From a virus, in IMG/VR virus record IMGVR_UViG_3300014911_000001, positions 111,797 to 175,796 of that record: a stretch of DNA of 64,000 nt; one strand, 5' to 3'. The notes beneath the pieces are model-generated. The model was not told the origin of the DNA. It searched no databases and worked only from the letters and a program-made list of their open reading frames with translations. Shown here one piece after another: positions 9,792 to 36,357 of the stretch; the first letter of the stretch is position 1; each line of letters begins with the position of its first letter. The translations under genes were made by a program, and so were the position numbers.

Positions 9792-11794
9792 TAGTCCGCC
9801 GTTTTGTAAATACTAACATATATAAGAATCTACAGGAGAAGCAGGGCATAACGGACAATGATGGTACTGTTTCCTATAAGCCGGCTGAGGAAACGACTTT
9901 TGATATACCTTATTTAGAGGATTTTTATACCCCTGCGCTTATTACGCTTTACTTTGATGGCATAAGGATAGCTGAGGCTGTTTTTGTGGAATATGTTTAT
10001 AATGATCAGAAGATACCTGTTTATGGTTATGGGGATCGTTATGTTCGTGCATTTGAGGAGGGGCATCATTTAATAAGCGGGCGCATGGGGTTTTTATTTA
10101 AGGAGACGGCTTATTTATCGAGTGTTATTGATTTGGTATCAGGAAGCCGGCTTATTACCACACCCGGAGGTGAAAGTGCTGTATATGCATTGCTGCAGAG
10201 AGTACTGAGCGATCCTGAGGTTAATGAAAAAGTTGAATATATGAGGCAGATTTTGACATCGGTATTTGGGTTGGAGCCCTTCAAGGTTGGGCAGCTTAAT
10301 GCTAATCAGATGATTAATTTATTAAAGATTTATAAGTCTGTTATTTATATGACTGTGAATCCCCGCTATGGCGCCACAGGTCCTTTGGTGACAGAGGCAA
10401 TGAACAGTAGCGAAGCGCTTAGTTCTCCCTCATCGCCACTGGTATGGAAGATCGGCTCGCCTCATGTTATATCGGCAATGTTAGATATGGAGGATGTCTT
10501 TGGTGAGGTGGCTATTGAAGGATTGTGGGAATCAGTGGAAGATGCATTATGGAGTAAGGAGGTGCCGGGCTTAGACATTGCACCCATCGTAGAGCATGAT
10601 TTAGGTTATACAGGTTATGGGTATGTAATATCTGACAAAACATTTGATGTTTTTATAAGGTATGGTGCTGATGGATCAAGCATTACAGACCATACAGTTG
10701 AGGTTATCAATGATGTCCATCTTGTATCAAGTGGCAAGAGCATCAATGTTGGCTCGCCTGATCTTGTTGTTGAGGTTTTGGAGTTCATAGCGCGCACTAA
10801 CAATCGGCGGCTTAATATCTACCAGCATAAACAGGTATCGGAGACGGATGAGCTTATTCCACCGCAAATGGATAGTGGTATGAGCGAGGGGAAGAAGTAT
10901 TTTAGTTATAAGAAAGAAGAAATGGAGAATGCGAGGGTCGGGGATCAGGAAAAGGAGAAATATAGAAAGCTTTCAGAAGAGGAATTGAAAGAAATGCGGG
11001 CTACCTTGTGCGGTCGTTGTATTGATGAAAGATGTAGTATCAAGGTGGGTAGTTTTGGGTTTAACACGTTGAAAGATAGCTTGTTTGAACATACAGGTAT
11101 AACATTAGATATTAGCTATCGAGGTGAGACTCATTTTGGTCCTTTGGTCATATATGAAAAACCGACATTTACTTTGAGTGTGGAGAAGACAGTTGATAAT
11201 TTGTTGGCTAATATTGCAAAATTATCGCAGGCTGCTACAAGGGGATCATTGGGTGGATTTGTAGTAGAGAAAGGTTTGTTGGAAGTTGTGTGGGGGCAGC
11301 ATCCTAAACTTGAGCAGCAGGGCCCTCATAAAGTAAGGACAGTTGGTTGTCCTTTTGCGTTTGCGGAGGCGGTTGTAGAAAATTTGAAGCCATCATTTTG
11401 TTTACGCTACTTGAATGCTCTTTTAAGGTATAGTGCCCCACCGAGTGCTATTATTGATGATTTGCGTGCTATTTTAGATTATGTTACTTCGCATTCAGGT
11501 ATCGCAAGTTTGAAGTTTCCTATAGCTATTGCTATGGCTGGTCATGGTGATGAGTTTAATAAAAACATTTCGCAATATATGAAAGGGGTTCATGTGCCAC
11601 AATTTGATGTATATGATGGATTAAAGATAAGTGTAAAAAAAGCACTACTACAAATAAATGAAGGGGAAAATACTCCTTATAAATTGGCTGTTTTGCCGTT
11701 GTACATAATTATGATTGATTTAGCTGACCGTGAATCGGTATTGAATTTTAAAAATAAGCTTGACACATGGACATTCCATCATTATTATTACTGA
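9788..11794 (+). CDS. Third tube-fold protein (tube initiator / baseplate-proximal tube-like)
   Basis: ITLYFDGIRI...QKIPVYGYG...GHHLISG, and later FDVFIRYG...INDVHLVSSGKSI...VEVLEFIAR, complete a split tube-like pattern. Confidence 0.6.
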   Translation: MIVRRFVNTNIYKNLQEKQGITDNDGTVSYKPAEETTFDIPYLEDFYTPALITLYFDGIRIAEAVFVEYVYNDQKIPVYGYGDRYVRAFEEGHHLISGRMGFLFKETAYLSSVIDLVSGSRLITTPGGESAVYALLQRVLSDPEVNEKVEYMRQILTSVFGLEPFKVGQLNANQMINLLKIYKSVIYMTVNPRYGATGPLVTEAMNSSEALSSPSSPLVWKIGSPHVISAMLDMEDVFGEVAIEGLWESVEDALWSKEVPGLDIAPIVEHDLGYTGYGYVISDKTFDVFIRYGADGSSITDHTVEVINDVHLVSSGKSINVGSPDLVVEVLEFIARTNNRRLNIYQHKQVSETDELIPPQMDSGMSEGKKYFSYKKEEMENARVGDQEKEKYRKLSEEELKEMRATLCGRCIDERCSIKVGSFGFNTLKDSLFEHTGITLDISYRGETHFGPLVIYEKPTFTLSVEKTVDNLLANIAKLSQAATRGSLGGFVVEKGLLEVVWGQHPKLEQQGPHKVRTVGCPFAFAEAVVENLKPSFCLRYLNALLRYSAPPSAIIDDLRAILDYVTSHSGIASLKFPIAIAMAGHGDEFNKNISQYMKGVHVPQFDVYDGLKISVKKALLQINEGENTPYKLAVLPLYIIMIDLADRESVLNFKNKLDTWTFHHYYY

Positions 11795-12499: not shown

Positions 12500-12876
12500 T
12501 GAATCTTATACGTATTAAGTATGAGGATACCACCTATGAATTTAATTATCCCACCCTATTTGATTACTACTTGTTTATTGATGGTCAAAAAGTTCGGGTA
12601 TTTGATCGCCTCGCATTAAAGGATTATAGTATTCCATCAATTAAGAAGGTGCGCATTATAACCATCCTCTTTCGTCACTTCCCCGCCTTTGCTACAGAGG
12701 ATGAGGTATTTTCCAATATACCGGATGCTGGTGGTTTGATTTATTTAATTCGGGCATTTGGATATAAACCTCACGAATTATTGCAGTTAAATCCTTATGA
12801 GCTTGATTTTGCGGTAAGGTTGGCGGAATATATAAACAATCCAAAACTAGAGAATGACAGTAGTCCGCAGGAATAA
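12499..12876 (+). CDS. Probable second tail assembly chaperone
   Basis: TAATG coupling; C-terminal AFGYKPHELLQLNPYEL resembles the G-x2-P-x-E-x3-L motif of tail chaperones; directly before the tape measure. Confidence 0.5.
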   Translation: MNLIRIKYEDTTYEFNYPTLFDYYLFIDGQKVRVFDRLALKDYSIPSIKKVRIITILFRHFPAFATEDEVFSNIPDAGGLIYLIRAFGYKPHELLQLNPYELDFAVRLAEYINNPKLENDSSPQE

Positions 12877-15800
12877 GCCCTTTCTTTTCCAGAGTGATTT
12901 AGCACGCATACGCACAGATGAGACATTGCGCAGCCGTTATGGGTGGGGTCGTACACTTTTGCGTTTTGGAGTGGCGATGGCTTCCTTTGCTGTTTTGTCT
13001 TATGGTGCGCGTTCCTTATCGCGTGCATGGCGTGCATTGGCCACATCTGGAGCATTATCACGGAAGTTTGTTGAAGGCGTTAAGGTAGTAAAGAAGTTAG
13101 GGCTTGAGCAGGGTAACTTACTTGATGTAATATTATCAGTATCTAGGCGTGCGCGTCGAGTTGCTTATAAATATGTTAAGTGGTCGCAAGATTATAGGGA
13201 TGCGTCGCGGCTTCTGCATTTTGGTAAGGCATTAAGGAAAATATGGAGCGGTGGTAAAGCATCATTAAAGGGTTTTAGGAAGGCGCGTGAGGCTTATCGA
13301 CGGGTTGGATTACGAGGTGCATTGTTTGGTGCCTTTTTGCGTGGTGCAGAAAGAGGTGTTGGATTTGCGATTTTATCTTCGGCTGCTGATGCATTAACAC
13401 ATTCATTTATAACACCTGCGGATAGAGAGAAGACAAGAAAGTATGGTCCTGTTGCTCGTGTGAAGCGTTTTTTCACTGATGCTGTCCTATTTAGTGGATT
13501 ACAAGGACTTTGGGGTGTATCAAAAGTTGCCTTTCCTACCTATATACATAGGTATAGCCCACAAATACAGCGTTTTCTTACCCGCATTGGAGCGCCTACT
13601 TATGTGGCTAAGTTTTATGGATGGAGGCGTCGCTTCTATGATTATCTAATTCGTGCTATAGAATATAAGCAGAAGTTTACTCAGAAATTGCAAGGTGCTA
13701 ATATATGGCAGCACATAAAGCAGCAGATGAAGGAGCATCCCGGGTTAGGTGCTATTGCAACCTATTTGCGGGAGCAGATAAGGGAAGCTCATCTACATGC
13801 TAAGAAATCGTTTAGGAGGCCGGGTGGATTTCCACCAAGGAGTGGTTATGATACGGTTATAACAATGATGAATTATGCGAAAGAGGTTAATGTTAAGGAT
13901 CCTAAGTTTGCAGCGGAGATTGCAGCTCAAGCTGTTGGACGTTATAAAGGTGTGAGTAAGTGGCGGCGGCTTCTTAATATCGAACGTGAAAGGTTGACCA
14001 AGAAGCAGGCTGTTGCTTTCAGGGAGATGCTTGAGAAAATGGGGTTTAGCAAGTCATGGATCGAGACATTAAAGGGGGAGGAACGCAAGTTTTATGAGAA
14101 TCTGTATTACCGTGTGATGAGGGGACCATTGTTCCATGGTCCCGGATGGTTTGAAGTAGCCGGGCAAAAGTTTTCACAGTATGAGACGCGTTATTTTGTA
14201 AAAGGAATTCTCCAGAATCTATATGCTGGTCGATGGAGGGGGGTTACACGCATTTTGGCTTCTGCGGCGGGCTTAGACCTCTATGCCAACCGCAGACCTG
14301 TATTTATCTTCCATCCTACCATGGATATTCCGATGAGCGTTCCTATACCGACTGATGAGGGTGTTCGTATGCTACGCTTGGTAACCGAACGTGGTAATGA
14401 TCGGGTTCGTCATGGGATTGTATTCTTACAGAATAAATTGTACAGATTATCGCCGACAGAGGAGGGTGGTGAATATTTTGTGGATAGGGTTATAGAGAAT
14501 GTTAAATTATATGAGAGCCCGGCTTATAACATATTAAAGAGGGAGTTAACGCAGTATTATATCAAGCAGAGGCGGCGCACGGATGAGATAGGTTTGCGTC
14601 CACCCGGTGAATATGTTAGGGATATAATCAGGAAATTATCGCGGGGTGTTGATAAGGCTAGCTTAGAGGAATTGGTTAATGTATATAAGTCAACCCGTTC
14701 GACGGCCCATATTATCTTTGGTAAATTGTTATCAAAGAAGGAGGTCCGTGAGGTTGCATCGCAGATCTTGGAGCAATTAGGCGCGAGTAGAGCGCAAAGG
14801 ATCTTGCAGATGGATGAGGCATCATTAATCAGGGAACTTGAGAAGGTTATAGAAAAGCCTGCACAGGTAACGGAGCGGCTTCGTAACAAGTTTATCTATC
14901 TTATAAATGCATCACGGAGTAGGATGAGGACTATGAAGGATCTTTTGAATCAGGAGTTTATAGGTTCTGGATATGCAGAAGCACGGGCTAGGCATGTTAT
15001 TGAGTCGTTCTTAATTGAGCAGCATTTGACACCAGAAATAAGGGCGAAATTCTTTAGCAGGCTTGCTGAGGAGCAGTTGATCGGGAAGTGGATAAGGAAG
15101 CCGGCTTATACACATTTCTTCAAAGCATTAGCAGAGCTAGCACCTGTTGAGATGGATGCAGAAGCTCTAAGGTCTACTATAAAGGGCGCGCTTAATGATA
15201 TTGTAGTCGGTTGGAAAAAATTACCTACAGTTGATCCATTTAGGCCGATATCTGCCTTATTCCAGTATGGTGGATTGGGTATCCACAGGTTATTTGAACC
15301 TACCATAGAAGGTATACGGGTAATGGGTACTACAGTACCATTTACTGTTGTTAGAGAAGGTATGAGTCCATTTAAACGGTATACGGTAACAAGTTTATTG
15401 TTTTCCCATCACTTACGGCGCATATGGGGATTTATGGATTATGTAAGCAAAGCTCCTCGCAAGTTTCCTATTATCAGGCATTTATTAAGGCGATTAGACC
15501 CTAGATTGGCTGATACGGCGCATATCTTTCCATTTGAGACTAATACTACTGGTTGGACGGCTTCAGATATGATAAAGAATTTATGGAAGCCGGCGGCTAC
15601 ATTATTGGCATTAGGTGTAGGATATAAGGCTGTTGATACATTCTTTGATGAAAGTGGTTTATTTGAAGGGACTGCATTAGGAGAGGGGTTGACACCTGCT
15701 ATACTGGATGCATATGCATTAGGTCGTCTTTCCTTGGCAAGAGTATTGGATATTGCAGGTGTAACTGATGCAGCGCGGTATTTAGAGGGATTAATGCCGG

Positions 15801-18685
15801 GGTCTACGACATGGTTGCCGGGTGCACTATATGGCGTATGGAAGTTTGCACCTGCGGGGCCGGCGGCTTCCGCTATGGGTGCATTAATAATGGGTGCTGT
15901 TAATAAAATGTTAGCGCCATTTTTGCCTGATTTAACAAAGAGTTATGATCAACTGAAAAGGATATATAGAGGTGAGGAGTATGTGCCTGTAAGGAGAGCA
16001 AGGTATTGGCCTCTATCTTTAACTCCTTGGGAGGGTTATGATATTGAATATTGGCGGCCTTCTCTATGGTTCATTGTAAGACAGCAGGCAAAATACACTC
16101 CTGATATAAGTGGTAGCAAGATACAGTCCTTGTTACAGGGTGACTGGTTGTTTGGTTATAATCCATTGCGTATGTTTGATCCATATGCTAAGGAAAGACA
16201 GCATTATTTCTCTAGGCCGGCGCCTCTCACACAGTTGCCATTTTGGGATGTGCCAGTTATAGGGCCGTTTTTAGCTTTAACTGTTGGGCAGGTATTGAAA
16301 CCACAGCAGATGATGCATACAGCCTTTTTGAAGGAGATGTATCCCGGTGAGTATGGTGTGCCGAAGGGTGAAGTTGTCACACCGGAGGATTTATCTAATC
16401 CTGATCAATATGTATCAGCTATGCAATCCAATCAAGCTGTTGCAATGTTAATGAATAGATATGCGGGGCGGGCTTACAGGCATGTCACAGGAGATATGCT
16501 TAATAGAGGTATAACAGAAACTCTGTATAGATCGATGGAGATGGCGGGCTTAAGAGGTTACCTAACATCGTTATTATTAGGAACACAGACACCGCTTAAT
16601 TTCAGTAGGTATCTAGAAATGTATGGTGAAAACGAAGGGTTTTTATCTGAGTACTGGAACATGGAGCTTAATGATGTAGCTGGTGGATTGTCTGAGATGA
16701 TAAGAAGATTCCGGCCTGACAAGCGGATAAATACAGTTAACCCTATCCCCAACCTTATGGCACAATTTTTACCCGAAGGAGAGTATGGTGGTAGCGATTT
16801 TCTACATGGTGATCCTTATACTAAAATTCCTATGGGTTTCATAAGATTGCCAGGGACTGGATATGAAGCAACACATAATGTAATGCATACATTTCCTGCA
16901 TCGTTAAGAATGTTGGGTAAGACAGTAACAGAGATAAGGGACATTATGGCCGGGTGGGAGGATATTATTGAGGAGAGAACGGAACGGGAGCTAAATCAAT
17001 TTTATGATGCCAAAAAGATTGTGCAGGGATTGCTTGAGATATCAGGACAGAATGTTGAGATGGATGTGCAGATTTACGATCCATATAACAACATTGTTGG
17101 TACCGTTGATGCAGTTGTGAGGAGAGGGCGATTTAGGCAACCTATTATTATACGTCCTGTTAGTGAGGAGGAATTTAGGGAGCTTGTTGCCCCGAAGGAG
17201 GAGCATGCGAGTCAGGTAAATTTTGCTATGAAGTTTTTTGGTGCGAAGACGGGTAAATTGATTTATGTGAATGTAAGATCGCCTGAACAGATTAAGACAT
17301 ATACCATCTTTTTTGATCCATCAAGGTTAAGAGAGGATATAAGTGCATTAAAGAGGGCGAGGGAACAGGCTGGTGAGTTGTTAAGGGCAGGAGCTGTTTT
17401 TGATTATGGTCGTAGTTATAGCTGGTTTGATAGATATAGAATTTTAGCTGATGTTGCTCCTTTATCTGATCAATATAAGCAGGCGCGTGCTATTGTATTG
17501 AAGCAATTGCAACAGGGATTTTTGCCACCTGAGTTATGGGATGAGGTGCATGAGATTGAGCGAAGGCGGCGGCTTCAGCTTTTAAAATATCCTATGTATG
17601 TGCGTCGTTTTACTGGTGAAAATGTTGTTGAAACGGTGCAGAAGCTTTTGCATCCGCCTAGGCTTTCCGGCAGGGAGTTATCGCTATCTTTGAATCCATA
17701 TTTAAGGTCGCCTGATGAATACAGTTTACCAGAAAGGATCGTAGGTAGTATCTGGGAGACATTTACACATTTACCAACACCTTATAATAGGAAATTCTTT
17801 TTCCAGTATTCACCGTCAGAGATTTATAAGTATTTCCATTTATATGATCGGGAGTATAAAGCATGGACGCGGCCTATTGAGGATTGGGTTAAGCCACAGG
17901 TTAGGACGATGCTTGCTTCACAAGGCGTAATGGAGGGCGCGGCTTCATGGGCTACAGCAGGTTATGCTGTTGGTAGGTTATACGGCGGGCTTATAGGTGC
18001 AGTGGCTGGATCCATATATGGGTTGATACCTAAGCCGCCGATGATACCGGAGGATGTGGAGAAGGCGCGCGAGGCTTATTCGTATTATGATAAATTGAAA
18101 TATGCACGTAACATGCAGTTTTATGTTATGACAGGTAATAGAATATATGAGGAGCGTGCTGAGCGGACCTTATTGGGTGCGAAGAACTTACGTGATTATG
18201 TAAGAGCATTACCACGTTTTGAGCGCCCATTTACTGTAGCGTTTATGAACATAACTGATGAGAGTGAAAGAGAAAGGATAAGGCAGATTATATCACCTGA
18301 GGCGCGTCGTGCCTTGGATGCAGCATGGGCGAGACGTGAATTGCGGTATAGTGTTGAAGAAGGTGGTTATGAAGAGGTACCGAGAACACCAGCTAATTGG
18401 GCTGGTTGGATTTTTGCGATACCTGATGAGGATATTTATGTGAAGGAGCTTGAGCAGCGGGGTGTTGATCCTCTAGATTTTGGTTATGGTTATCATGGTC
18501 AGGCAGCTGCTGTACGCCGTCTATCTGAAGATTTTGCTATACCTGATCAAACTGTAGACGTCGTAAATATTATGGATGTACAGGAAACGATAGTAAGGTC
18601 ATTGCAGGCGCAGGGTATTAATGCTTCTGTATCCATCATGGGATTTGATAATAGTAGAAGAGTTGATGTTGTTATTTATAAATAA
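12854..18685 (+). CDS. Tape-measure-like / ejected virion protein with a degenerate PD-(D/E)XK (Cas4/RecB-like) domain
   Basis: 1943 aa, helical, very basic N-half, several Gly/Ala-rich hydrophobic segments, tape-measure position; nuclease-like segment at about 17050-17340. Confidence 0.65.
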   Translation: MTVVRRNKPFLFQSDLARIRTDETLRSRYGWGRTLLRFGVAMASFAVLSYGARSLSRAWRALATSGALSRKFVEGVKVVKKLGLEQGNLLDVILSVSRRARRVAYKYVKWSQDYRDASRLLHFGKALRKIWSGGKASLKGFRKAREAYRRVGLRGALFGAFLRGAERGVGFAILSSAADALTHSFITPADREKTRKYGPVARVKRFFTDAVLFSGLQGLWGVSKVAFPTYIHRYSPQIQRFLTRIGAPTYVAKFYGWRRRFYDYLIRAIEYKQKFTQKLQGANIWQHIKQQMKEHPGLGAIATYLREQIREAHLHAKKSFRRPGGFPPRSGYDTVITMMNYAKEVNVKDPKFAAEIAAQAVGRYKGVSKWRRLLNIERERLTKKQAVAFREMLEKMGFSKSWIETLKGEERKFYENLYYRVMRGPLFHGPGWFEVAGQKFSQYETRYFVKGILQNLYAGRWRGVTRILASAAGLDLYANRRPVFIFHPTMDIPMSVPIPTDEGVRMLRLVTERGNDRVRHGIVFLQNKLYRLSPTEEGGEYFVDRVIENVKLYESPAYNILKRELTQYYIKQRRRTDEIGLRPPGEYVRDIIRKLSRGVDKASLEELVNVYKSTRSTAHIIFGKLLSKKEVREVASQILEQLGASRAQRILQMDEASLIRELEKVIEKPAQVTERLRNKFIYLINASRSRMRTMKDLLNQEFIGSGYAEARARHVIESFLIEQHLTPEIRAKFFSRLAEEQLIGKWIRKPAYTHFFKALAELAPVEMDAEALRSTIKGALNDIVVGWKKLPTVDPFRPISALFQYGGLGIHRLFEPTIEGIRVMGTTVPFTVVREGMSPFKRYTVTSLLFSHHLRRIWGFMDYVSKAPRKFPIIRHLLRRLDPRLADTAHIFPFETNTTGWTASDMIKNLWKPAATLLALGVGYKAVDTFFDESGLFEGTALGEGLTPAILDAYALGRLSLARVLDIAGVTDAARYLEGLMPGSTTWLPGALYGVWKFAPAGPAASAMGALIMGAVNKMLAPFLPDLTKSYDQLKRIYRGEEYVPVRRARYWPLSLTPWEGYDIEYWRPSLWFIVRQQAKYTPDISGSKIQSLLQGDWLFGYNPLRMFDPYAKERQHYFSRPAPLTQLPFWDVPVIGPFLALTVGQVLKPQQMMHTAFLKEMYPGEYGVPKGEVVTPEDLSNPDQYVSAMQSNQAVAMLMNRYAGRAYRHVTGDMLNRGITETLYRSMEMAGLRGYLTSLLLGTQTPLNFSRYLEMYGENEGFLSEYWNMELNDVAGGLSEMIRRFRPDKRINTVNPIPNLMAQFLPEGEYGGSDFLHGDPYTKIPMGFIRLPGTGYEATHNVMHTFPASLRMLGKTVTEIRDIMAGWEDIIEERTERELNQFYDAKKIVQGLLEISGQNVEMDVQIYDPYNNIVGTVDAVVRRGRFRQPIIIRPVSEEEFRELVAPKEEHASQVNFAMKFFGAKTGKLIYVNVRSPEQIKTYTIFFDPSRLREDISALKRAREQAGELLRAGAVFDYGRSYSWFDRYRILADVAPLSDQYKQARAIVLKQLQQGFLPPELWDEVHEIERRRRLQLLKYPMYVRRFTGENVVETVQKLLHPPRLSGRELSLSLNPYLRSPDEYSLPERIVGSIWETFTHLPTPYNRKFFFQYSPSEIYKYFHLYDREYKAWTRPIEDWVKPQVRTMLASQGVMEGAASWATAGYAVGRLYGGLIGAVAGSIYGLIPKPPMIPEDVEKAREAYSYYDKLKYARNMQFYVMTGNRIYEERAERTLLGAKNLRDYVRALPRFERPFTVAFMNITDESERERIRQIISPEARRALDAAWARRELRYSVEEGGYEEVPRTPANWAGWIFAIPDEDIYVKELEQRGVDPLDFGYGYHGQAAAVRRLSEDFAIPDQTVDVVNIMDVQETIVRSLQAQGINASVSIMGFDNSRRVDVVIYK

Positions 18686-21600
18686 TGGCAGTTATAAGGA
18701 AAAAACATACATATTTGCGTACTTTTACACGCAGGAAGGAGCGGGAGAAGGGCAACCGTTTTGCGAAGTTTGGACTGGGGGTTGCTGCTCTTGTGCCCAT
18801 TGTTTATTTGGTCAGGGGGCGCGGCTTCGAAAGGCTACATGATTTTCTTAAGACCTTTGCTGAGGCTTCATATAAGAAAGAGGCGCGGGCTTCAGAAGCA
18901 TCTCTATGGGCATATGGGCCTCTTGATAGGATAAAAAAGGCATTTATGGATAATCCATTTTTATCGGTACTGGGTACTGTTACCAAAAAGGAAGCACAAG
19001 GAAGGTCTGTAAGGGAGGTATTGAATAAATTAAAGGATATTGTCGAGCTCTTGCGTGAATATTATTCGGTAGCTGAAATAAGAAAATTATTTAATGAGGA
19101 TATTATTCCTTATGCTGATAAAGCGTCTAAGCTTATTGTTGAGGAGGAAAAGCAATTAGTATATAAGTATCAGTTAATGTTTGAGCGGGCGCTTAAAATT
19201 CTCACGAGGAAGATTAATGAAAAAGGGTGGCTTCCGCGAGACCCATTTCATTTTCGTCTCCTAAGTAAGTATTTACCACATAGCTACAAATTTGGATTGT
19301 TTTATGGTACGATGCCGAGTTTTTCGGCGCCTCTATTTGAGATTTCTACAGCTAGTGAGCAGTTTGCACAGATTTTCCAAAGGGAGATAAAGAATCTATC
19401 AGAAAGTGAGGTTTTACTTGGTCAACATGTTGAGCAGGTTATAAAAGATTATGTAAAAAAGCATGTAGTTGTAAATCCTGAGTGGGAGCTTGCTGCTAGT
19501 GAGGTGTTTAAGCATCTATCAGCTGAGGAGCATTTACAGGTCCGAAATCTTGTTACAAGAATTACAGAGCAGGTAGCTAAGTGGTTGCATCGTCATGCCG
19601 GTATTGATGCAACAGATTTGCCTGATGTGCATGTTGTTATAAAGGCGCAGCGTTATTATGATGTTCCTATGCTAGTTGCTCAGCTGTCGGTTGTTGATCT
19701 GCGTGGGGTCAAAAGGAGTATAGAGATCAAGCTTGGTGTTCCCCAGAAAAGTGGATTGATGGCAGCTATAGGAAATTATCCAACAGCAAATGTCAGATTT
19801 GCTCAAGGTAACAGGGTAAGGTCGATCTTTTCCTTGAAGCTGGAGCGCTTAGGCGAGATGTTTGAGCATGCCTTGAACGATTTATACGAAGGGAAGTCAG
19901 AGGATTATGTTACCAGACGCATTCATAGAATCATTGGACGATATGATTTATATGGAACTGGGCGTAATGATAAAGCATTCCAGTTGGTGCATTCCATTGT
20001 TGATAAGGACTTTAAGGATTATGCGGCTTATAATGCTAAAAAGAGATTTTTGAAGCGCGCTGCTGAGTTGGTGCTTGGTGTGAGAAAAGGCAAGTATCGG
20101 GTGTTTATGGATGCTGAGTGGGTTATGGCTGGTATATCGAGTACTGGGACTCAATATGCAGTGACTGAATCCCGCCGGCGCTTGATATGGAGTTTTGCCA
20201 TACAAGTTTTTGATGATCTTGGTAATGAGGTTGATAAGTTGGTTGTATTTATAGATCCGAAGACGATAAGCGATGAGTTCTTCATGTCGCAGGTGCGTCG
20301 TTTTGGATTATCAAAGGCAGCTGCTGAGGAGGCATTAAAAGCGGTTAGAGGTCGTGTTGCGATGCCTGCTGGATATGTCAGAGTTGATAGTGAGATGGAA
20401 GCCAGCCGGCTTATATGCAAGAAAATAAAAGACATAATTAATAAATATGGTAAGGATGATCTACTTGTTATGGGTAAGAACTTCTGGAGCTCAGAGGTTG
20501 CATTGTTGGAGCGGGCCTTTAAAGCTGACAGTAATATATTAAATTATATCAAAAGAAAGTTAGTTGATATAGAGGATATATATAGGTTGGTATATGGTGC
20601 TAAGGCTATTAACAGGTCATTAAGTGTTGAGGCTATTCTCGATTATGTAAAGGTATCGGATGAAGGATCGAAGCTATTGGGCCGGCTTCTTAATTATGAA
20701 CCGAGGGTTGAGGTCCAAGCGTTTGCTAATTTAGTTAGGTCGCTACATTTTGGTGAGCAAGATAACAGGATTGCATACATCCTATCAAAAATTGCGGAGA
20801 GCATGGTTAATAATGATCCTGAGTTGCGTGAGAGAGTACTAAGGATTTATGATATTGTAGCGAAGTCACAGGGAGCTGTTTTATCATTTACAACGCAGCA
20901 GGAGTTCATGCAGCGGGCTTACAATTATGTAAAGGAGCAATTGAAATCTGTTGGTGTTGGTTCGCCTAATGCTGCGCGTAAGTGGCGTTTTGAATATCCG
21001 TTTAATCCGGCTGATTGGGTTCCGCTATTTGTTCCCACCTTGGAGAAACAGAGGTATCAGTTAGGCCGCGGCTTACCTTTATCGGAGGCGTCGAAAAGAT
21101 TGCTTGAAACTCTTAAGAAGGAATATGCTAGGCGCGTATTAGGGTTGGGTGAGGCTGATATCAATTATCTAGGACCGGCGCTTATTTCTATGCCATTTAA
21201 GAGATTCCTAGAACAGCAGATGTTATATAATGTCCGTAGTGTATTTACGATACCTGTCTTCTCAACATTTTTCCCATTTGCTGGCGAAGGACATATGTTT
21301 ATACACAGGAGACTTACTGAGCTATCGACAGTAGTGCAGGAGGTGATTAGTCAGAAAATTCCGATAAGTAGGTTGGAGAATATGGATGCTCGTATGCAGT
21401 TGTGGGTGAAGCTTTTTGAATCTGCCATGGAGGCTGTTAAGACATCTCCGAAGTTGGGTGAGTTAATTAAAAGCAAATTTAATAATGATATTGTTAAGTT
21501 TTTGAGAGCTGTAGATTTGTCGATTGTTATTGGTAGATATCGTGGATGGATAAAGGATTCTGAGCGGTTGGCTAATGTTTTAGTGCAGTTGTTTCCGGGG

Positions 21601-24600
21601 TTTCCTATCAAGCGTTTTGTTGGTCATGCTATTGGTAGGAATCTAAGAGGTCTTACTATAAAGCAGTATATGGCACTGCGCCGCGGTGTGAGTGCACCAA
21701 AAATAAATTTGGGGGATATATGGAAGGAGATATTTAGCGACAAAGCAGCTGCTCATCCATTATACGACATGTTGAGTAATGATAATATGTTGAAACTTGG
21801 ATTGATGGATGAGTCTGCTCAGGCAGGTTATGCACAATGTGCATTAATAAGGGAAATCTTTAATAGATTGGTAGAATCGGGGCTTCATCTTACCAACCCA
21901 GAGCAGTACATCAAGTATGGTACTTTCGTAATGACGGACCGGCTTCAGCTTGGTGATAAGGTTGTAAAAATTGGTTATAATGGTAAATTGGTTTTTAATA
22001 AAATAATTACATCTTATGATCTTACAGGTGTACCTTCATTAGATTTTTCACTTACCTATGAGATAGTTTTGCCAACTCCCTTAAAGTGGGTTACATATTA
22101 TCAAAAAGGTATGGGGACAGCACAGCGCTGGTCCTTAAGCCAATTTCCATATTATCTTATAGAACCGGCACGTTTTATGGAGCGTGGTGAATTGGGCATC
22201 TTTATAGAGACAGAGATGACCCGGCTAAAGGAGGCATTAATTAAAAAATATGGTGTGCGGGAAGCCGCCAATGTTATGTCAAAGATGACAAAGGACCTCA
22301 ATGATTATATGAATAGAGTGGTTAATTACGCTATTAAGGAGCACGGGCTTCCCATCAAACTTACCAGTCCGTTGTTTATATTCAATCCCAAAATGATGGC
22401 AATAGAGGGCAATTATGATTTGTTTAACACATTGACAACAGAACAAAAGGGATTATTGTGGACAGTATTTTTGGAGGGTTTACCTGAGAAGGTGGGAAAG
22501 ATTGGTGGATATCCAAGCTTGTTTGATTATCTTGAGGCTAAATTCAAGGAGCATGGTATTGTTGTAACTCCCCAAGAAAGGAGGATATTCAGAAGATATG
22601 TACAGAAACAATATGCGTTGTATAAGAACAAAAAGATAAGCGAAAAGGAATTTTTTGAAACAGTCTTGCTGAAGGACATAGCTGATGAGAGGATACGAAA
22701 CTGGTTTAGCAGATTATATTATGGAGATGATAGGGAGCAGCTGGCGCGCTTATTCGATATATATCAGATAAAATTAGGTAAAAGGGTTGTTGAGCTTATT
22801 GGTTTGGGCCGTCATAGCCCCTTTGGGTTGGGTGATACGGCTCTAACTAGTACCTACAAAAGTTTTGTTCGTATACCAATGCAGATGTATTGGGATATCC
22901 ATCGCTGGCCTCATTTAGAGGGTATGGCTCAATTTATTGATGCCTTCCAAGCTCAGAATCTACCTATTTATGAGACACTTCTTAAGATGGCTGATATGCT
23001 AAAAATGAGTCAGTCATCTATTGATGAGTTGGTGAAGGCAGGGGGTATCTATGCTGTACCGGTGCGGCGCTTCTTTGACTTTGTGCGCAAACATATGAAT
23101 CTTCTTAGGTCAATAAGGGAGGATATATATGTACCAGAAAAGATATTAGAGGAGGCTCATGGTGATATGGTTCGTGCTGTCCAAATGATGCTTGATCTGG
23201 GTGTATCGTTAACGGATTTTAAGGAGAATGCTATAAAGTTTGAAGGCGCGCAGGTCCGTGCGCAGGTTGCCAAGGAAGTGCAGGATTTCCTCAGACAGAT
23301 ATTTGAGGAGGCGCAAGGGAAGCGCGTTGTTATCGATGTAGGCAGGGCAATGTCTGTTTCCTATAAGAACCTTGAGTCGATGATTGGTCAGAATGATGCT
23401 ATTATTAGGGATCTTATAAAATATTTAGAGAGAATGGGTTACAACAAGCTGAAGTATATACCATTGGGGACAAGGGAATTTTGGGATCTGTCATTCCACC
23501 AGATTGGTAGAGACCAAGTTATTGTTGAGCCTCAGGTTAAGAAGTTGCTGCAATTAATGGCATCGATTGCATCAATTAAGGGTAAGGTGCAAGCAACTGG
23601 TGTGCCATCGGCGCAGGTTAAATTTGAAGAGAGAAATGTATTTTATAAGCAGTTTGTTAATTATCTTGGTTCTATAGCTAGTAGCTTTATAGGCCGGCAA
23701 TCCTTATGGGCACGCACTGCTGTAACACATCTTCCTGGTGTTGAGGGTGTTGGACTTCCGTCCTTCTTGCTTTTTAATAAGTCGCGGCTTCTTGACACAG
23801 TTGTATGGGAGCCATTTACGACCTATGTTGATGCTTCTGTTATTGAGAATCTCAGAGGTATGTTGGAAGCCGCCGGCTTCTCCAAGGAATTTATCGATGC
23901 TTTTTACAAGGGCAGTCCTAATGTAGCATTTTTAGGTATGCCCGGACGTATGCCATTCCACCCCGGTATGGGATTGATAGGATTTATAAAGAGTTTAACC
24001 AAGCAGCAGAAGAAACATGTTTCATCTGTAAGCGATGCCGTTAAAATATATATGGATCCTTTATTGATAACGAAGGTTCTATTAGGTGACTGGGATACAG
24101 ATAGATTGATGGCGTTACTAACAATGACATCTCCGAAGGGTGCTGAGGATATAACAAGGATATGGAAGTGGGTCTATGGTTTATCAGATCAGGATGTTGC
24201 ATTTCTTATGTCGTATGGTAAGTTTAGAGCTGGTGACAGGAAGGCTATAGGTGAATTGCAGACATTTTTTACGTCTGTTTTTGAGAAGATGACAAAAGAG
24301 CAGAAGGAGGCATATATACAGAGCAAAGAGTTTGAGGATATGCTCCACAAAAGATTATCAGCCATTGTTGCAAGAATGAAGGAAGGATATTTGAGCTGGT
24401 TTGGTAAGTCTGAGGCAGAAGAGTTAAGCGAGCGGGTCGAGTTTTTAGTGACAGGTGATGTGACGAAGATACCGACAACGGAGGGTAAGGTTATTTATTT
24501 ACCGACTATATTAGCGCAGATGCGTGGTTATACGATGAAGATTGAAAAAATGTGGCCATTTATACAGGAGGCCAAGGAAATTGCGAGGAAGGAAGGAATT

Positions 24601-25746
24601 CCATTCAAGGAGGCATTAGCTAAGCATATGGCTGACATTTTTGCTAATAGGGAGCTTAGGAATGTACTGGGTACATCGATGGCTGGTAAAGCTGATGTGA
24701 TAAGAACAGGGTATGCATTAGCATTGCAGCATATATATAAATTAAGAGCTGAAGGGCTTTCATATCAGGATATAAGTAAGATCATGGGATTAAGCATTCC
24801 AGAAGCATTTGGTCAAGTATTTGATAAATGGATTGCGGCGGGTTCTGAAAGACAGAAGATGATTCTTACATTTGAAAGGGAAATACTCGATAAGGTATTA
24901 AAGATGAAGCGTGGTGGTTCTCCAGAGGCGATGGCTGAAGCAATAAATAATCTTGCTAATGAGTTGCTGGAGTATAGTAAGGTTTCATCATCTGTTGCGA
25001 AGAAAGGACATGAGTTAATAGATAAATTTGTTGCAGAAATTGATTGGGAGAAGATGGGATTGAAGCCGCGTGATGCTTTATACATGATGGGGTGGTTATT
25101 AAGAAACACGCAATGGACTATCCGTAATTCCAGTTATCTTGTTACGAGACAATCGATAAATAGAGGTCTTATTGAAGCATATGCGATGTTTGCATCCCGT
25201 TTGCTGAGTCAACCGACGGGTCCTACGGTAAGCCCGACATTGTTAGATGCATTGTCGGGTGAGGTATTAAGGGGCATGGCAAGGGAGCCGAAGCCATTGA
25301 ATGAATTACTTGGCGAGCAAACAGCAAATATGAGGTTTAGGGAGGCATTGGCGGGCTTCCTTACAAAAACATTTGAGAATTTATCTAAATCAAGAAAACA
25401 TAGATTGCTATTAGCAGGTGCATTGGCTGGGATAGCGGGATATATATTAAGCGGGCCGAAATTAAGAGGAGATATATTTTCATTTGGTATCGATATAGGC
25501 ACAGTGCATGGATTGGAGCCGAGCTTCTTTGATGGTAGATGGACATACCCTGAGTTGCCCCGAGGGGAGGATATAAGGGGTTTGGAGAATCCATATCATA
25601 AAAGGAAAATTTATATTCTACGTAATATAAGGCGCAGGAACCCTGCATTATTTAATGAGTTAAGGAGGCGCGGTATAATTCAAGAGTGGGAAATGTCGGC
25701 GCCTTATGATTACCCACGCAGAGAAAGGAAGGTGATCTATGTATGA
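18685..25746 (+). CDS. Giant virion protein: DEDDh exonuclease domain plus putative single-chain two-barrel RNA polymerase
   Basis: Exonuclease motifs VFMDAEW (D476/E478), MGKNFWSSE (E604), LHFGEQD (H688/D693); polymerase-like motifs LKWVTYYQKG (K1134/K1141), GRMP (R1755), GDWDTD (D1802/D1804/D1806). Confidence 0.65.
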   Translation: MAVIRKKHTYLRTFTRRKEREKGNRFAKFGLGVAALVPIVYLVRGRGFERLHDFLKTFAEASYKKEARASEASLWAYGPLDRIKKAFMDNPFLSVLGTVTKKEAQGRSVREVLNKLKDIVELLREYYSVAEIRKLFNEDIIPYADKASKLIVEEEKQLVYKYQLMFERALKILTRKINEKGWLPRDPFHFRLLSKYLPHSYKFGLFYGTMPSFSAPLFEISTASEQFAQIFQREIKNLSESEVLLGQHVEQVIKDYVKKHVVVNPEWELAASEVFKHLSAEEHLQVRNLVTRITEQVAKWLHRHAGIDATDLPDVHVVIKAQRYYDVPMLVAQLSVVDLRGVKRSIEIKLGVPQKSGLMAAIGNYPTANVRFAQGNRVRSIFSLKLERLGEMFEHALNDLYEGKSEDYVTRRIHRIIGRYDLYGTGRNDKAFQLVHSIVDKDFKDYAAYNAKKRFLKRAAELVLGVRKGKYRVFMDAEWVMAGISSTGTQYAVTESRRRLIWSFAIQVFDDLGNEVDKLVVFIDPKTISDEFFMSQVRRFGLSKAAAEEALKAVRGRVAMPAGYVRVDSEMEASRLICKKIKDIINKYGKDDLLVMGKNFWSSEVALLERAFKADSNILNYIKRKLVDIEDIYRLVYGAKAINRSLSVEAILDYVKVSDEGSKLLGRLLNYEPRVEVQAFANLVRSLHFGEQDNRIAYILSKIAESMVNNDPELRERVLRIYDIVAKSQGAVLSFTTQQEFMQRAYNYVKEQLKSVGVGSPNAARKWRFEYPFNPADWVPLFVPTLEKQRYQLGRGLPLSEASKRLLETLKKEYARRVLGLGEADINYLGPALISMPFKRFLEQQMLYNVRSVFTIPVFSTFFPFAGEGHMFIHRRLTELSTVVQEVISQKIPISRLENMDARMQLWVKLFESAMEAVKTSPKLGELIKSKFNNDIVKFLRAVDLSIVIGRYRGWIKDSERLANVLVQLFPGFPIKRFVGHAIGRNLRGLTIKQYMALRRGVSAPKINLGDIWKEIFSDKAAAHPLYDMLSNDNMLKLGLMDESAQAGYAQCALIREIFNRLVESGLHLTNPEQYIKYGTFVMTDRLQLGDKVVKIGYNGKLVFNKIITSYDLTGVPSLDFSLTYEIVLPTPLKWVTYYQKGMGTAQRWSLSQFPYYLIEPARFMERGELGIFIETEMTRLKEALIKKYGVREAANVMSKMTKDLNDYMNRVVNYAIKEHGLPIKLTSPLFIFNPKMMAIEGNYDLFNTLTTEQKGLLWTVFLEGLPEKVGKIGGYPSLFDYLEAKFKEHGIVVTPQERRIFRRYVQKQYALYKNKKISEKEFFETVLLKDIADERIRNWFSRLYYGDDREQLARLFDIYQIKLGKRVVELIGLGRHSPFGLGDTALTSTYKSFVRIPMQMYWDIHRWPHLEGMAQFIDAFQAQNLPIYETLLKMADMLKMSQSSIDELVKAGGIYAVPVRRFFDFVRKHMNLLRSIREDIYVPEKILEEAHGDMVRAVQMMLDLGVSLTDFKENAIKFEGAQVRAQVAKEVQDFLRQIFEEAQGKRVVIDVGRAMSVSYKNLESMIGQNDAIIRDLIKYLERMGYNKLKYIPLGTREFWDLSFHQIGRDQVIVEPQVKKLLQLMASIASIKGKVQATGVPSAQVKFEERNVFYKQFVNYLGSIASSFIGRQSLWARTAVTHLPGVEGVGLPSFLLFNKSRLLDTVVWEPFTTYVDASVIENLRGMLEAAGFSKEFIDAFYKGSPNVAFLGMPGRMPFHPGMGLIGFIKSLTKQQKKHVSSVSDAVKIYMDPLLITKVLLGDWDTDRLMALLTMTSPKGAEDITRIWKWVYGLSDQDVAFLMSYGKFRAGDRKAIGELQTFFTSVFEKMTKEQKEAYIQSKEFEDMLHKRLSAIVARMKEGYLSWFGKSEAEELSERVEFLVTGDVTKIPTTEGKVIYLPTILAQMRGYTMKIEKMWPFIQEAKEIARKEGIPFKEALAKHMADIFANRELRNVLGTSMAGKADVIRTGYALALQHIYKLRAEGLSYQDISKIMGLSIPEAFGQVFDKWIAAGSERQKMILTFEREILDKVLKMKRGGSPEAMAEAINNLANELLEYSKVSSSVAKKGHELIDKFVAEIDWEKMGLKPRDALYMMGWLLRNTQWTIRNSSYLVTRQSINRGLIEAYAMFASRLLSQPTGPTVSPTLLDALSGEVLRGMAREPKPLNELLGEQTANMRFREALAGFLTKTFENLSKSRKHRLLLAGALAGIAGYILSGPKLRGDIFSFGIDIGTVHGLEPSFFDGRWTYPELPRGEDIRGLENPYHKRKIYILRNIRRRNPALFNELRRRGIIQEWEMSAPYDYPRRERKVIYV

Positions 25747-25910
25747 AAATTATAGTTAGAGTACCACCAAATGCAGATATTGTTCGTGTTGAAGCGGCAA
25801 TACGTAATGCTTTGATGGCGTATGATTTAGATGTACGGTCGATACAAGTGGTAACAACAGCTTTCGGACAGGAGGAGTATGCCAGAGGACTCGAAAAAAC
25901 CGAGGCTTGA
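25743..25910 (+). CDS. Small hypothetical protein (55 aa), absent from the ORF track
   Basis: ATG overlaps the upstream TGA (ATGA); reads MKIIVRVPPNADIVRVEAAIRNALMAYDLDVRSIQVVTTAFGQEEYARGLEKTEA* and fills the apparent intergenic gap. Confidence 0.55.
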   Translation: MKIIVRVPPNADIVRVEAAIRNALMAYDLDVRSIQVVTTAFGQEEYARGLEKTEA

Positions 25911-28900
25911 TTACAGGACAGCTATTATAGGTACTGTTCCTGTGATTGTTACAGATTTTAGAGTTGTTGAGAATTTTTCCTACCAGCAGATACAGACGCT
26001 ACGTATGGATAATAATGTTATTTACCAGATACCCGGAAGGAATTTGTATGTTATTATTGGATTAGAATTTCCTGATGGTTATTCCATTAATACAGGACTG
26101 CGTGAGCTCCATGCCATGATGTTTCTTGCTCCCATTGTACCTATTTATAGTCCGTGGCTTAATGACATGGTTATTGCATCGTTTGATCAATATAGAGGGC
26201 TTGCTGAATTAATGGGTGTTAATACAGATGTAAACATTTATGCATTGCGTCGTTTAACGATGAGATCTGTTGAGTCGCCTTATGCTATTGGTGTTGAGAT
26301 GGAGATTGCTCCTATGGATTTAGATGCGGCGCGGCTTAAACCCCAATTCCTTGTGGATGAAGAGGCAGCGCGGGCTAAATCTGAATTTATAGCGAGGTTG
26401 TTTGAGTTATATGAAACGATGAAGAGAAGTGAGGACCCGCTGGCTTATTTGGATGGCTTTACATCTATCTACAATGATTACAAGAGGGCTGTTGCTAATA
26501 AGGTTGTCGACTTCCTATGGCAGTCAGAATTATTTAAAAGGTGGATAAGCATAATGTATCCTGAGGGTGATAAGTCACTTTTACCAGTTCAAGGGGTGCG
26601 GCTTAAGCGGCAGCTTGGCATATGGCGGCAGACACCGTTTGCTAATATTGTTATTCATTATCTTCATATGGCTGATGATATCGTATCGTTGCGAGATGAA
26701 ATCCATAAGTATGTTTCAGATGTGGCTAGTAGTACAGCGAAAATGATCCGTGATTATGTAGCTGATTACGAACAAATTCAGCAGGTTGGCGCGCCTCGAC
26801 GATTTTTTCAAGTATTACAGACATTATATAATAGCATTAAAGGTGGCATACGCACCCGTGTTGATAGTTCATTAATGGGTACTATAGCGTTTGGTAATCA
26901 GATAAGAGAGATGTTACTTGAGGTTGCGTTACGCATGGATAATGGGCAGAGGGGTAAGTTTACTAACTATGTGCAAAGGATTCTATCTCTGACGGCGGGG
27001 CCTAATCTAGTAGTCCCTGAGATGATGATGGAGGGTGAGTCAGCTATTGTTACCATGTCTGATTTTCTTACTAGATTTTTTGCGGAATTAGGTAAGAAGT
27101 TAGATACGGATTCATACAAAATTTTTGTTGATTTATTTGCTGATGTTATGTCTGAACGTATTGCGTATTGGGAGTTGTTTTCAAAGGTGATGAAATATGA
27201 GACATTTGATTTTGGTAAGTATCGTGCTACTCCAACCAGATGGGAATATACCGTAACTAATAAATTCGTACCTCTGAGGATTGGTGATGCAGTAGCTCCC
27301 TTGTTGCAACATCTTGGTACTGACAGTCCTATATTTAGGGTGCAATATGCATGTGGTGATGGTCTGGCCATAAGGCAGCTAAAACAGTTAAGAGATGATG
27401 TTGATAAGGCTGTGCAACAGATAAATGAAATAGGGTCGTATTTCCCTTGGATTACGAGATATATAGAGCCTATAATATTATCCTCAACGGACGGCTTAAT
27501 TGAATTTCTGGGCATGCAGCATGCGGTTTTAGATTCAGTAAGTATTAATCCGATGGAAGAAGCCGCGATGGTTGCTGAGGCTACATGTACATTTGTTGCC
27601 TCTGATATAACGATTTTTGATTACGAGCAGTTTGAGTTTGCCGATACTGTTGGTGCCAATAATTTATCATGTCTATTATTATTCTATGCATTGCGTAAAT
27701 GGTACCAGGAAATTTTTGGCAAAGACCTTCCTCCGAGTGGTACTGTTGCAGAGACGGTGCAGCCATTAAAGGAAGGTGAAGATATTTCGAAGCTAAGGAT
27801 TCCGTTTAAATTGTTTGATGTTATGGATTCACAGAATGTAACGAAGCGTGCATTTCAGTATGCGATGACATTATCCAAAGCTGAGAATCAGAATTATTAT
27901 AACTTCACTATCTATAATTCAGATAAAAAGGCTGTATATGCATTAAATGAGGGTGTGGTTACTAACGTAACTAATAATCTGGTTGATGGTTATATAGTTC
28001 GTGTGAAAAACGGTGATTTTGTAACGGAGTATAGGAATCTGGGGAAATTGGCAGAGGATATTAAGCCGGGCGAAAAGGTGTTGGGTGGACAATATTTAGG
28101 GGAGGCGCGCTTCTTTGCTAGTGGAACATATCCAACCGAAGTACAGGAAAAAGAAGTTAAAATGCTACCTAACCTATTAGGATTAGGGGTGCCTGAGGTT
28201 GTTCAAGAATACAAGAAGAAAGTAAAAACATCTGGTCCTGCGCCTTATGGGGTGTTTGTATTATTTATGTATAAAAATATTCCATTGGACCTAGAAATTT
28301 ATAAAGGTAAGGAGGTTTTTGAAAAAGCAGCTAATATATCTGCGCCCACAGATATATATGCATATTTTTGGACCCATACTAAGGATGATAAAATAACATG
28401 GGCTGGGCATACCTATGATGTGAAAAATAATCCTTATGTCCAAGGATATGTAAATAGTGTCTTAGGTGGGATACCTATTTTAGAATCAATTTCGAATCGT
28501 GTTTTTGATGAGAAGACATTTTTTGATGTCCTTATTCGATTACTGATGGAGAAATGTATGACATGTGTATCGTCATTTGATATTGCTGGCTTGGAGCAGA
28601 AGCTTGCAAATGAATTGGGTATGGAGCCGGCTTCTGCAACTGATAAAGCTGTTCCAACACAGGAGGAATATGTGCCCGTTCTTGGCCGTCCATACTTTAC
28701 CCACCCATCATTGGAAGAGATGAAACTACCAGAGCCACAATTACCTCCTAAGGTAACTCCGGCACCAGAGGAAGGAAAAATGGAAGTACCTGAGGAGAAA
28801 GTAGAGAAACCGCAGCTTTCTGCACCAAAAGAATTACCTGAGGAGGCCCCGCCAGTAGAGGTGCCGCCTAGTGAACCACCAATGATAGAAGAAGGTGAAA

Positions 28901-35878: not shown

Positions 35879-36357
35879 TGGTGGATTTGCACATAAATCA
35901 TTTAGGATTGCTCGGTGATGATGTTTTTATCGATACTGATAAGAACGAGTATCTTGCTGATTTTATCGCATTTTTGTTGCGCACTACTCCCGGAAGTATT
36001 GATATTTATCCAGAGCTGGGTGTAGGTGTTTATGATATGATCGGTGAATTCTGGTCCAAGGAGAAGAAAAAGCACATTACATTGGCTATAAAAAGGAAGC
36101 TTAATGATCTGCCTCAGATAGGAAACAGAGTCGCTCGTATTACTGTGTCAAGGGTTGTGGAAAAGGGTGATACCTATTTATTCATTGGTATAACGCTTAT
36201 TACTGGCGAACGATATTTTTACACATTAGTTATGAATGAACATGGATTAAGGTTATCGAAAGGGGGTAGGGATGAGGTGTATGATGAATATGTAGAAATG
36301 TTGGCAAAGGTAGAGTTTAAGGATGAAGATTTCAATAGCATTATGGAGCTATTATGA
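35878..36357 (+). CDS. Baseplate wedge / sheath initiator (gp25/gpW-like)
   Basis: LLRTTPGSIDIYPELGVGVYDMIG motif; precedes baseplate J. Confidence 0.8.
   Translation: MVDLHINHLGLLGDDVFIDTDKNEYLADFIAFLLRTTPGSIDIYPELGVGVYDMIGEFWSKEKKKHITLAIKRKLNDLPQIGNRVARITVSRVVEKGDTYLFIGITLITGERYFYTLVMNEHGLRLSKGGRDEVYDEYVEMLAKVEFKDEDFNSIMELL

Follow-up and report, generated by a model that had tools for sequence, protein, structure and literature searches.

A window of 64,000 nucleotides (the whole stretch of DNA that was analysed, being the final 64 kb of the 175,796-bp IMG/VR virus record IMGVR_UViG_3300014911_000001) was found to contain a giant open reading frame (ORF), designated P0001, whose product carries a set of motifs resembling those by which DEDDh exonucleases are recognized. 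The favoured, though tentative, interpretation is that amino acids (aa) ~466-712 of this protein form a very divergent DnaQ-type 3'-5' exonuclease domain, within a protein that would be ejected through the phage tail and that would act on 3' ends beside a polymerase module. P0001 as a whole plausibly represents a very divergent variation on the theme of polymerases delivered through the tail, one that includes an exonuclease-like module. The DEDDh motif set is real, and the DnaQ/DEDDh identity of the domain, as proposed in an earlier reading of the window made from the sequence only, is partly supported: the motif set, its order and a DnaQ-type fold predicted by a low-confidence model speak for it, while no family profile was found to match.

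Exonuclease-like motifs of P0001

The four motif strings named in the sequence-only reading were all confirmed to be in frame within the ORF at 18685-25746, with D476/E478 and H688-x4-D693 at the positions claimed. The relevant features are as follows (window coordinates).

18685-25746, plus strand: P0001, the second of a run of giants, 2,353 aa, which holds the finding (intact ORF)
20080-20820, plus strand: candidate DnaQ/DEDDh-like domain, aa ~466-712 (AlphaFold2 secondary structure, Foldseek and VIA matches, ESM features)
20095-20121, plus strand: ExoI-like strand YRVFMDAEW, aa 471-479, with D476 and E478 (in frame; MAFFT alignment)
20461-20508, plus strand: ExoII-like strand and helix LLVMGKNFWSSEVALL, aa 593-608, with N599 and with Glu604 at the usual place of Asp (register uncertain; local alignment to RNase T)
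20386-20388, plus strand: D568, alternative ExoII candidate (MAFFT choice; Gly in the relative P0002)
20560-20586, plus strand: LVDIEDIYR, aa 626-634, resembling the 'hhD[TV]xxLxR' segment of strand β5 in DEDDh enzymes (sequence comparison only)
20743-20763, plus strand: ExoIII-like LHFGEQD, aa 687-693, giving H688-x4-D693 (in frame)

Along P0001 these motifs follow the DEDDh order (D476-x-E478, N599...E604, H688-x4-D693) with plausible spacing. The D-x-E of ExoI (FMD476-A-E478-W) falls inside a predicted strand (aa 471-483), and H688-FGEQ-D693 is situated at the start of a predicted helix (aa 694-710). For comparison, a set of five E. coli K-12 PF00929 domains was used, namely those of DnaQ, Orn, ExoI, RNase T and ExoX. 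Unguided alignment of the P0001 domain with this set using MAFFT placed D476/E478 on the ExoI D/E column of all five enzymes, and paired LVDIEDIYRL and SLSVEAILDYV with the β5 segment of DnaQ and the helix segment that follows it.

Regarding ExoII, the top-scoring local alignment between the domain and RNase T joined aa 568-612 of P0001 with the α3-β4-ExoII segment of that enzyme. D568, the residue selected by MAFFT, is probably not catalytic, as it is replaced by Gly in the close relative P0002. Glu604 is favoured as the ExoII acid both for this reason and because it lies five residues past the Asn, the spacing of the corresponding Asp in E. coli Orn, compared to a spacing of four in DnaQ and RNase T. 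The candidate active site, as judged from these motifs, would consist of D476, E478, E604 (Glu replacing the ExoII Asp), H688 and D693.

In its bare form, the catalytic pattern (D.E...N.{3,4}[DE]...H.{4}D) was also present in 163 of 2000 shuffles of P0001 (8%) and is thus weak on its own. A stricter pattern with flanking hydrophobic strands, which was written post hoc and recognizes two of the five E. coli DEDDh enzymes, was found in only 1-3 of 5000 shuffles.

Predicted fold of the exonuclease-like domain

Structural modelling and language-model features suggest that aa ~466-712 probably adopt a DnaQ-like fold. An AlphaFold2 single-sequence model covering aa 455-732 of P0001, albeit one of low confidence, showed the element order β1-β2-β3-α-α-(β)-α-β4-α followed by helices, with three long strands, helices and then a strand at LLVMG, which fits the DnaQ fold. 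Comparison of this model to the PDB using Foldseek gave 41 listed rows, of which approximately 31 were DEDDh enzymes or PolB exonuclease domains and most others were RNase H-like proteins. The best of these were ERI2 (E 1.5e-3, prob 0.98) and 3'hExo (E 8.7e-3, prob 0.99), with Orn, CRN-4, RNase T and TREX2 also among those listed. The top rows obtained against BFVD were phage proteins described as 'Exoribonuclease 3' (1e-3), 'DEDDh' and 'Orn'; in both libraries the top rows had E-values of at least 1e-3 and template modelling (TM) scores of 0.25-0.33. A second look using VIA-align placed model residues 12-160 (aa 466-614) on the PolB exonuclease domain, ERI2, ExoI and Orn with Z 4-5.5 and identities of at most 17%, the best five rows having 92-126 residues aligned at 3.4-5.4 Å.

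With ESM Atlas, the domain was given a recognition value of 2987 (mark 2300). The 30 best clusters (0.94) comprised viral proteins without a name, and the nearest clusters bearing a name were without exception RNase_T or DnaQ-like exonucleases of viruses (0.92-0.93). The sequence-only reading had made its claim dependent on the prediction of an RNase H-like DEDD fold, and a fold of the DnaQ type is indeed predicted, by the low-confidence AlphaFold2 model and by the language-model features.

Gene integrity and strain comparison

The ATG of P0001 overlaps the stop codon of the 1,943-aa giant upstream of it (TAATG). Its ORF is unbroken in three assemblies, including those of IMG/VR contig L002 and of the ENA protein P0002 (2,355 aa, 94% identical to P0001). 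P0001 and L002 differ at 63 nucleotides but at no more than 11 amino acids, with the three nucleotide differences inside the exonuclease-like domain all being synonymous, showing P0001 to be a real gene under purifying selection. In comparison to P0002, six of the 281 residues of aa 455-735 are changed, all conservatively and with none at the five candidate catalytic residues, while approximately 4% are changed elsewhere. A survey of whether homologues keep the fusion had been advised in the sequence-only reading; both of the relatives that were found (P0002 and L002) keep it, which, like the retention of the acidic residues in them, says little as the domain is 98-100% identical in them.

The differences between P0001 and P0002 are not evenly distributed, with 65 of the 152 clustering in aa 901-1100 (21385-21984), just upstream of the putative β-like barrel described below, and the rest of the protein differing at approximately 4%. 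This segment looks like a hypervariable or recombined one.

Further relatives were sought in several collections. A word-based search of 5.8 billion proteins (using the domain, the full-length protein and shorter forms of aa 1000-1950) returned only P0002, and an exhaustive phmmer search with the domain, covering 1.84 billion representatives, gave P0002 as the sole true relative. Five additional phmmer matches (P0003-P0007, E-values down to 4e-19) were rejected as spurious, being translations of junk repeats or FN3 arrays whose low E-values are due to many weak stretches being summed across repeats; such summed scores are a trap for the automated counting of homologues. Scans of IMG/VR with P0001, the baseplate wedge protein and the 1,798-aa neighbour of P0001 identified only the near-identical contig UViG_3300005098_000017, and GenBank phages searched by tblastn at E<=5 gave no match to P0001.

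RNA polymerase-like region of P0001

On the basis of motifs, it is plausible that P0001 carries a single-chain two-barrel RNA polymerase (RNAP) with a DWDTD loop, C-terminal to the exonuclease-like domain. The features concerned are listed below.

24088-24102, plus strand: DWDTD, with D1802, D1804 and D1806, the sole DxDxD in P0001 (motif scan)
23710-24120, plus strand: candidate β'-like double-psi barrel, with ARTAVTHLP..GVGLP, GRMPFHPGMG and IYMDPL..GDWDTD (motif order and spacing)
22081-22110, plus strand: LKWVTYYQKG, aa 1133-1142, with K1134 and K1141 as candidate lysine pair of a β-like barrel (motif only)

The equivalents of the β'-like motifs in E. coli β' are RSVITVGP..CGLP, RAPTLHRLG and IQLHPL..NADFDGD, and those of P0001 occur in the same order with approximate spacing. 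When a profile of 78 viral β' segments was compared to P0001, aa 1784-1822 matched in register with 1.0 bit, a score which was reached by 4 of 1000 shuffles of this segment, itself chosen post hoc.

The same genome record was found to encode a separate 830-aa ORF with a GWDADGD loop (record positions 68458-70950, minus strand, ~41 kb before the window). The loop makes this protein a candidate non-virion two-barrel RNAP; it showed no similarity to P0001 using BLASTP.

A weak match to the helix-turn-helix of Sigma-70 region 4 (E 0.017, below the cut-off) was also observed at aa 2017-2038 of P0001 (24733-24798), C-terminal to the putative polymerase core.

Genome setting and neighbouring genes

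All long ORFs of the window are on the plus strand. The features that were identified around P0001, and at its two ends, are as follows.

4147-7431, plus strand: tail sheath (PHROGs match)
7759-11794, plus strand: three tandem genes with a common N-terminal phrog_9206 match (PHROGs)
12854-18685, plus strand: first giant, 1,943 aa, in the tape-measure position upstream of P0001 (ORF list)
18757-18813, plus strand: hydrophobic, membrane-helix-like segment at the N-terminus of P0001, aa 25-43 (Kyte-Doolittle scan)
25399-25470, plus strand: Gly/Ala-rich hydrophobic segment at the C-terminus of P0001, aa 2239-2262 (by eye; under the 1.6 hydropathy cut-off)
25879-31275, plus strand: third giant, 1,798 aa, downstream of P0001 (weak M23 peptidase and amidase matches, Pfam/PHROGs)
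36354-37448, plus strand: baseplate wedge protein (PHROGs match)

The PHROGs matches to sheath and baseplate wedge mark this region as a contractile-tail structural module. Its tape-measure-to-baseplate interval (12854-35288) is occupied by a run of four giant ORFs, which measure 1,943, 2,353, 1,798 and 1,337 aa (7,431 aa in total) and of which P0001 is the second. In the first, aa 1405-1485 weakly match an exonuclease PHROG (phrog_2506, E 0.0095); the third may be a wall-degrading tail protein judging from its weak matches, and for the fourth there is a match to an 'endolysin' PHROG. P0001 is likely to be a virion component that leaves via the tail, given that it has hydrophobic segments at both termini and is encoded between the tape-measure-position giant and the putative wall-degrading giants.

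The three genes with a phrog_9206 match probably encode paralogues that serve in the tail tube or as decoration proteins. The label of this family ('major head protein') is odd for genes at the tube position, directly after the sheath.

Comparison with known systems

The P0001 domain resembles DEDDh enzymes (DnaQ epsilon, RNase T, Orn, ExoI and ExoX of E. coli; human ERI2 and 3'hExo/ERI1; PF00929) in its D-x-E on the first strand, its H-x4-D at a late helix, its candidate N-x4-acid at strand 4 and the helix with the spacing of Orn, and its predicted β1-β2-β3-α-β4-α order, and these enzymes are the top structural neighbours of its model. It differs from them in showing no detectable sequence or profile similarity, in having Glu and not Asp at ExoII, and in a longer distance from ExoI to ExoII (by ~30 residues) and from ExoII to ExoIII (by ~25). 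Furthermore, it is neither a separate enzyme nor joined to a DNA polymerase, but forms part of a 2,353-aa protein of a virion module, where it is located at residue ~470.

DnaQ-like proofreading exonucleases occur on the same chain or polyprotein as a polymerase in PolB, PolC and Pol I, and in nidoviruses, where the nsp14 ExoN accompanies nsp12. As is proposed for P0001, a DEDD exonuclease is N-terminal to a polymerase in this group, and the PolB exonuclease domain is among the best structural neighbours of the P0001 model, but the polymerase in question synthesizes DNA or, in nidoviruses, is an RNA-dependent RNA polymerase. No DEDD exonuclease is known to us to be fused to a two-barrel RNAP of the DNA-dependent type.

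The virion RNAP of phage N4 is a very large protein that is packaged in the virion and ejected, and that transcribes early genes. In phi14:2, a phage of crAss-like type, gp66 is reported to be a two-barrel virion RNAP that was identified by DFDxD. P0001 would share with both the character of a very large, virion-packaged and ejected polymerase for early-gene transcription; the two differ from it in being podovirus capsid cargo, in having no exonuclease domain described and in having no sequence match to P0001.

The closest parallel in organization is the Thermus phage P23-45, whose tape measure protein gp96 carries a virion two-barrel RNAP that was found via its DxDxD motif, with a second and non-virion RNAP (gp64) being encoded elsewhere in the genome (Chaban et al. 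2024, PMC10770324). Similarly, P0001 is one of the giants of a tail module and contains one DxDxD as well as putative membrane segments, in a genome that has a second, smaller DxDxD protein (830 aa). The probable polymerase of P0001 would be a counterpart of the virion RNAP that is fused to the tape measure in P23-45. This reading is favoured by its context, since P23-45 pairs gp96 with gp64 and the genome of P0001 likewise contains the separate DADGD ORF. The phage of P0001 also looks thermophile-associated. Among the differences, gp96 is itself the siphovirus tape measure and has its DFDGD at 779-783, within the first 1,200 residues, while P0001 follows a separate giant at the tape-measure position of a contractile-tail module, with its DWDTD at 1802 and an exonuclease-like domain preceding it. 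No nuclease is mentioned in the paper on gp96 (PMC10770324). P0001 showed no similarity to gp96, gp64, gp66 or QDE-1 by PDB sequence search or by tblastn against GenBank phages (E<=5), a set which should include phages of the P23-45 type.

The architecture of P0001 had not been recognized in the sequence-only reading. With respect to the exonuclease this holds, as no description of one fused to a virion RNAP was found in the literature searched; a tail-delivered two-barrel RNAP, however, is already published for P23-45 (PMC10770324). A comparable protein was also sought in other phages. Using β' with tblastn, GenBank phages yielded the multisubunit RNAPs of jumbo phages and the β' of a Rhizobium phage replication module, with no exonuclease-RNAP tail giant among them. 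Such a giant was likewise not found in Bacillus phage SP-10, and Bacillus phage 0305phi8-36 gave no match to PF00929 or PF00623. A β' scan of IMG/VR identified four plain β/β' fusions, none with an exonuclease domain, encoded by the following single ORFs.

L023:5891-12763, L025:5846-12577, L062:5948-13774 and L024:5921-11209 (IMG/VR contigs): β/β' fusion single ORFs

These range from 1,763 aa (an ORF that runs off the end of its locus) to 2,609 aa and comprise complete cellular-type β and β', with Pfam, applied to three of the four, detecting Rpb2_6 and Rpb1_1-5. One was observed to have an M23 match inside β, and one a LAGLIDADG insert.

Proposed mechanism

At infection, P0001 would leave the virion through the tail, and its DnaQ-like domain would then act at 3' ends next to the polymerase module. 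The substrate is most likely to be the 3' strand at the entering end of the genome, the resection of which would provide a single-stranded template for a polymerase that has neither sigma nor clamp. This would suit such a polymerase, as a 3'-5' exonuclease working at a duplex end leaves the template strand for a polymerase moving toward that end. The removal of misincorporated or backtracked RNA 3' ends is a less likely role. In its most specific form, the exonuclease would strip the 3' strand and the two-barrel RNAP would then start pre-early transcription on the exposed strand, a launch free of promoter melting, in a deep thermophile-associated lineage that has drifted too far for profiles to detect it and that has an Asp-to-Glu change at ExoII; this full scenario is regarded as a long shot.

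Weighing of the evidence and alternative explanations

A considerable number of results weigh against the reading of P0001 as an exonuclease joined to a polymerase. A profile search for the RNase_T/DnaQ family, which had been advised in the sequence-only reading, was negative throughout. In Pfam, no nuclease family was found for whole P0001 or for aa 439-739 at E<=1; PF00929 and PF16473 had no match at E<=10 on the six-frame translated genome, though both profiles match in control genomes; PHROGs and NCBIfam gave no match to the exonuclease-like domain at E<=10; and a hidden Markov model (HMM) of the five E. coli DEDDh domains did not match the P0001 domain with filters off (--max). Pairwise comparison to the same five domains was negative using hhalign (prob 0.3) and, using Smith-Waterman alignment, not above shuffles (best Z 1.25). 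A phmmer search of PDB sequences returned chance histone H2B rows only. No additional DEDDh sequences by which the profile could be broadened were present in the retrieved loci, and all relatives of P0001 that were found are near-identical strains, with no diverse ones among them. At ExoII, no Asp is in place after N599. Weak matches to histone H2B, R.HinP1I and KwaB were judged to be due to chance.

To these can be added the limits of the structural evidence. The AlphaFold2 model of aa 455-732 has a predicted local distance difference test (pLDDT) of 46.8 and a predicted TM score (pTM) of 0.40, both denoting low confidence. No Foldseek row against the PDB was found at E<=1e-3, a wide VIA search that was independent of Foldseek gave no Z>=5 and had unrelated helical chains tying with the exonuclease rows, and the C-terminal half of the domain model, including ExoIII, had no structural match. 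The borderline scores of the model (E ~1e-3, Z 4-5.5) lie within the noise or common-arrangement range of the tools, and the named ESM Atlas clusters share fewer than 170 features with the domain, a level which the tool grades as chance or distant. For the polymerase partner, PF00623 and PF05183 gave no match to P0001, PDB sequences gave none to whole P0001 or to aa 1601-1900, and ESM Atlas gave no usable match for aa 1001-1922, while an AlphaFold2 model of aa 1660-1850 (pLDDT 40.6) contained no strands and lent no support to a barrel.

The negative sequence tests, the presence of the loose catalytic pattern in shuffles, the structural scores inside the stated noise range and the few shared ESM features would all suit an absence of any DEDD-nuclease fold, with the motifs of so large a protein being coincidental and another α/β module occupying aa 466-712. 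A motif made up of a helix and three strands is indeed present at the N-terminus of single-chain two-barrel RNAPs (PMC10770324). This explanation is nevertheless considered rather unlikely, as an untemplated model put DEDDh enzymes first in two libraries (PDB and BFVD) with about three quarters of the PDB rows belonging to one superfamily, the language model arrived at the same family by a separate route, and the secondary motifs hhD[IV]xxIxR and SLxxxL occur in the right order. Should the fold be DnaQ-like, the domain could also be a dead or weakened pseudo-nuclease that binds a 3' end, for example by holding the leading genome end so that the DNA follows the ejected protein to the polymerase. 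The misplaced ExoII acid (Glu604 being one position off the register of DnaQ and RNase T, and D568 being Gly in P0002), a divergence beyond the reach of any family profile and the weak exonuclease PHROG match in the upstream giant can be cited in favour of this. It was judged improbable, since all but one of the five catalytic residues are unaltered, metal binding is also possible with Glu, E. coli Orn has the same N-to-acid spacing (five), and the domain is conserved at least as well as the rest of the protein (six of 281 residues changed in P0002 versus approximately 4%).

A low probability was also given to an active exonuclease that would work apart from any polymerase, being ejected as an effector to degrade host DNA, RNA or defence nucleic acids immediately upon entry, with the remainder of P0001 serving as a tail or ejection scaffold. 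The RNAP identity of P0001 is supported at the motif level only, the adjacent giants appear to carry other enzymatic cargo in the form of wall hydrolases, and the separate DADGD protein could be the polymerase of this genome. Set against this are the unique DxDxD, which follows R-x-P-x-x-H and GLP motifs at the spacing of β' and is in register with the β' profile, and the precedent of P23-45 with its pair of virion and non-virion RNAPs; a few ejected copies would, in addition, be ill-suited to destroying bulk host nucleic acid. The interpretation of aa ~466-712 as a very divergent DnaQ-type exonuclease domain beside a polymerase module is consequently the one that is put forward here.

Significance

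P0001 illustrates how far modules of this kind can drift beyond the reach of Pfam-type annotation. The tail delivery of a cellular-type RNAP has so far been shown for one lineage of Thermus siphoviruses only, and a fused exonuclease is undescribed in the literature searched; the presence of one would raise the mechanistic question of whether it serves template preparation, RNA proofreading or an attack on the host. If both modules are real, P0001 would be a nuclease-polymerase machine that is carried into the cell through a contractile tail.

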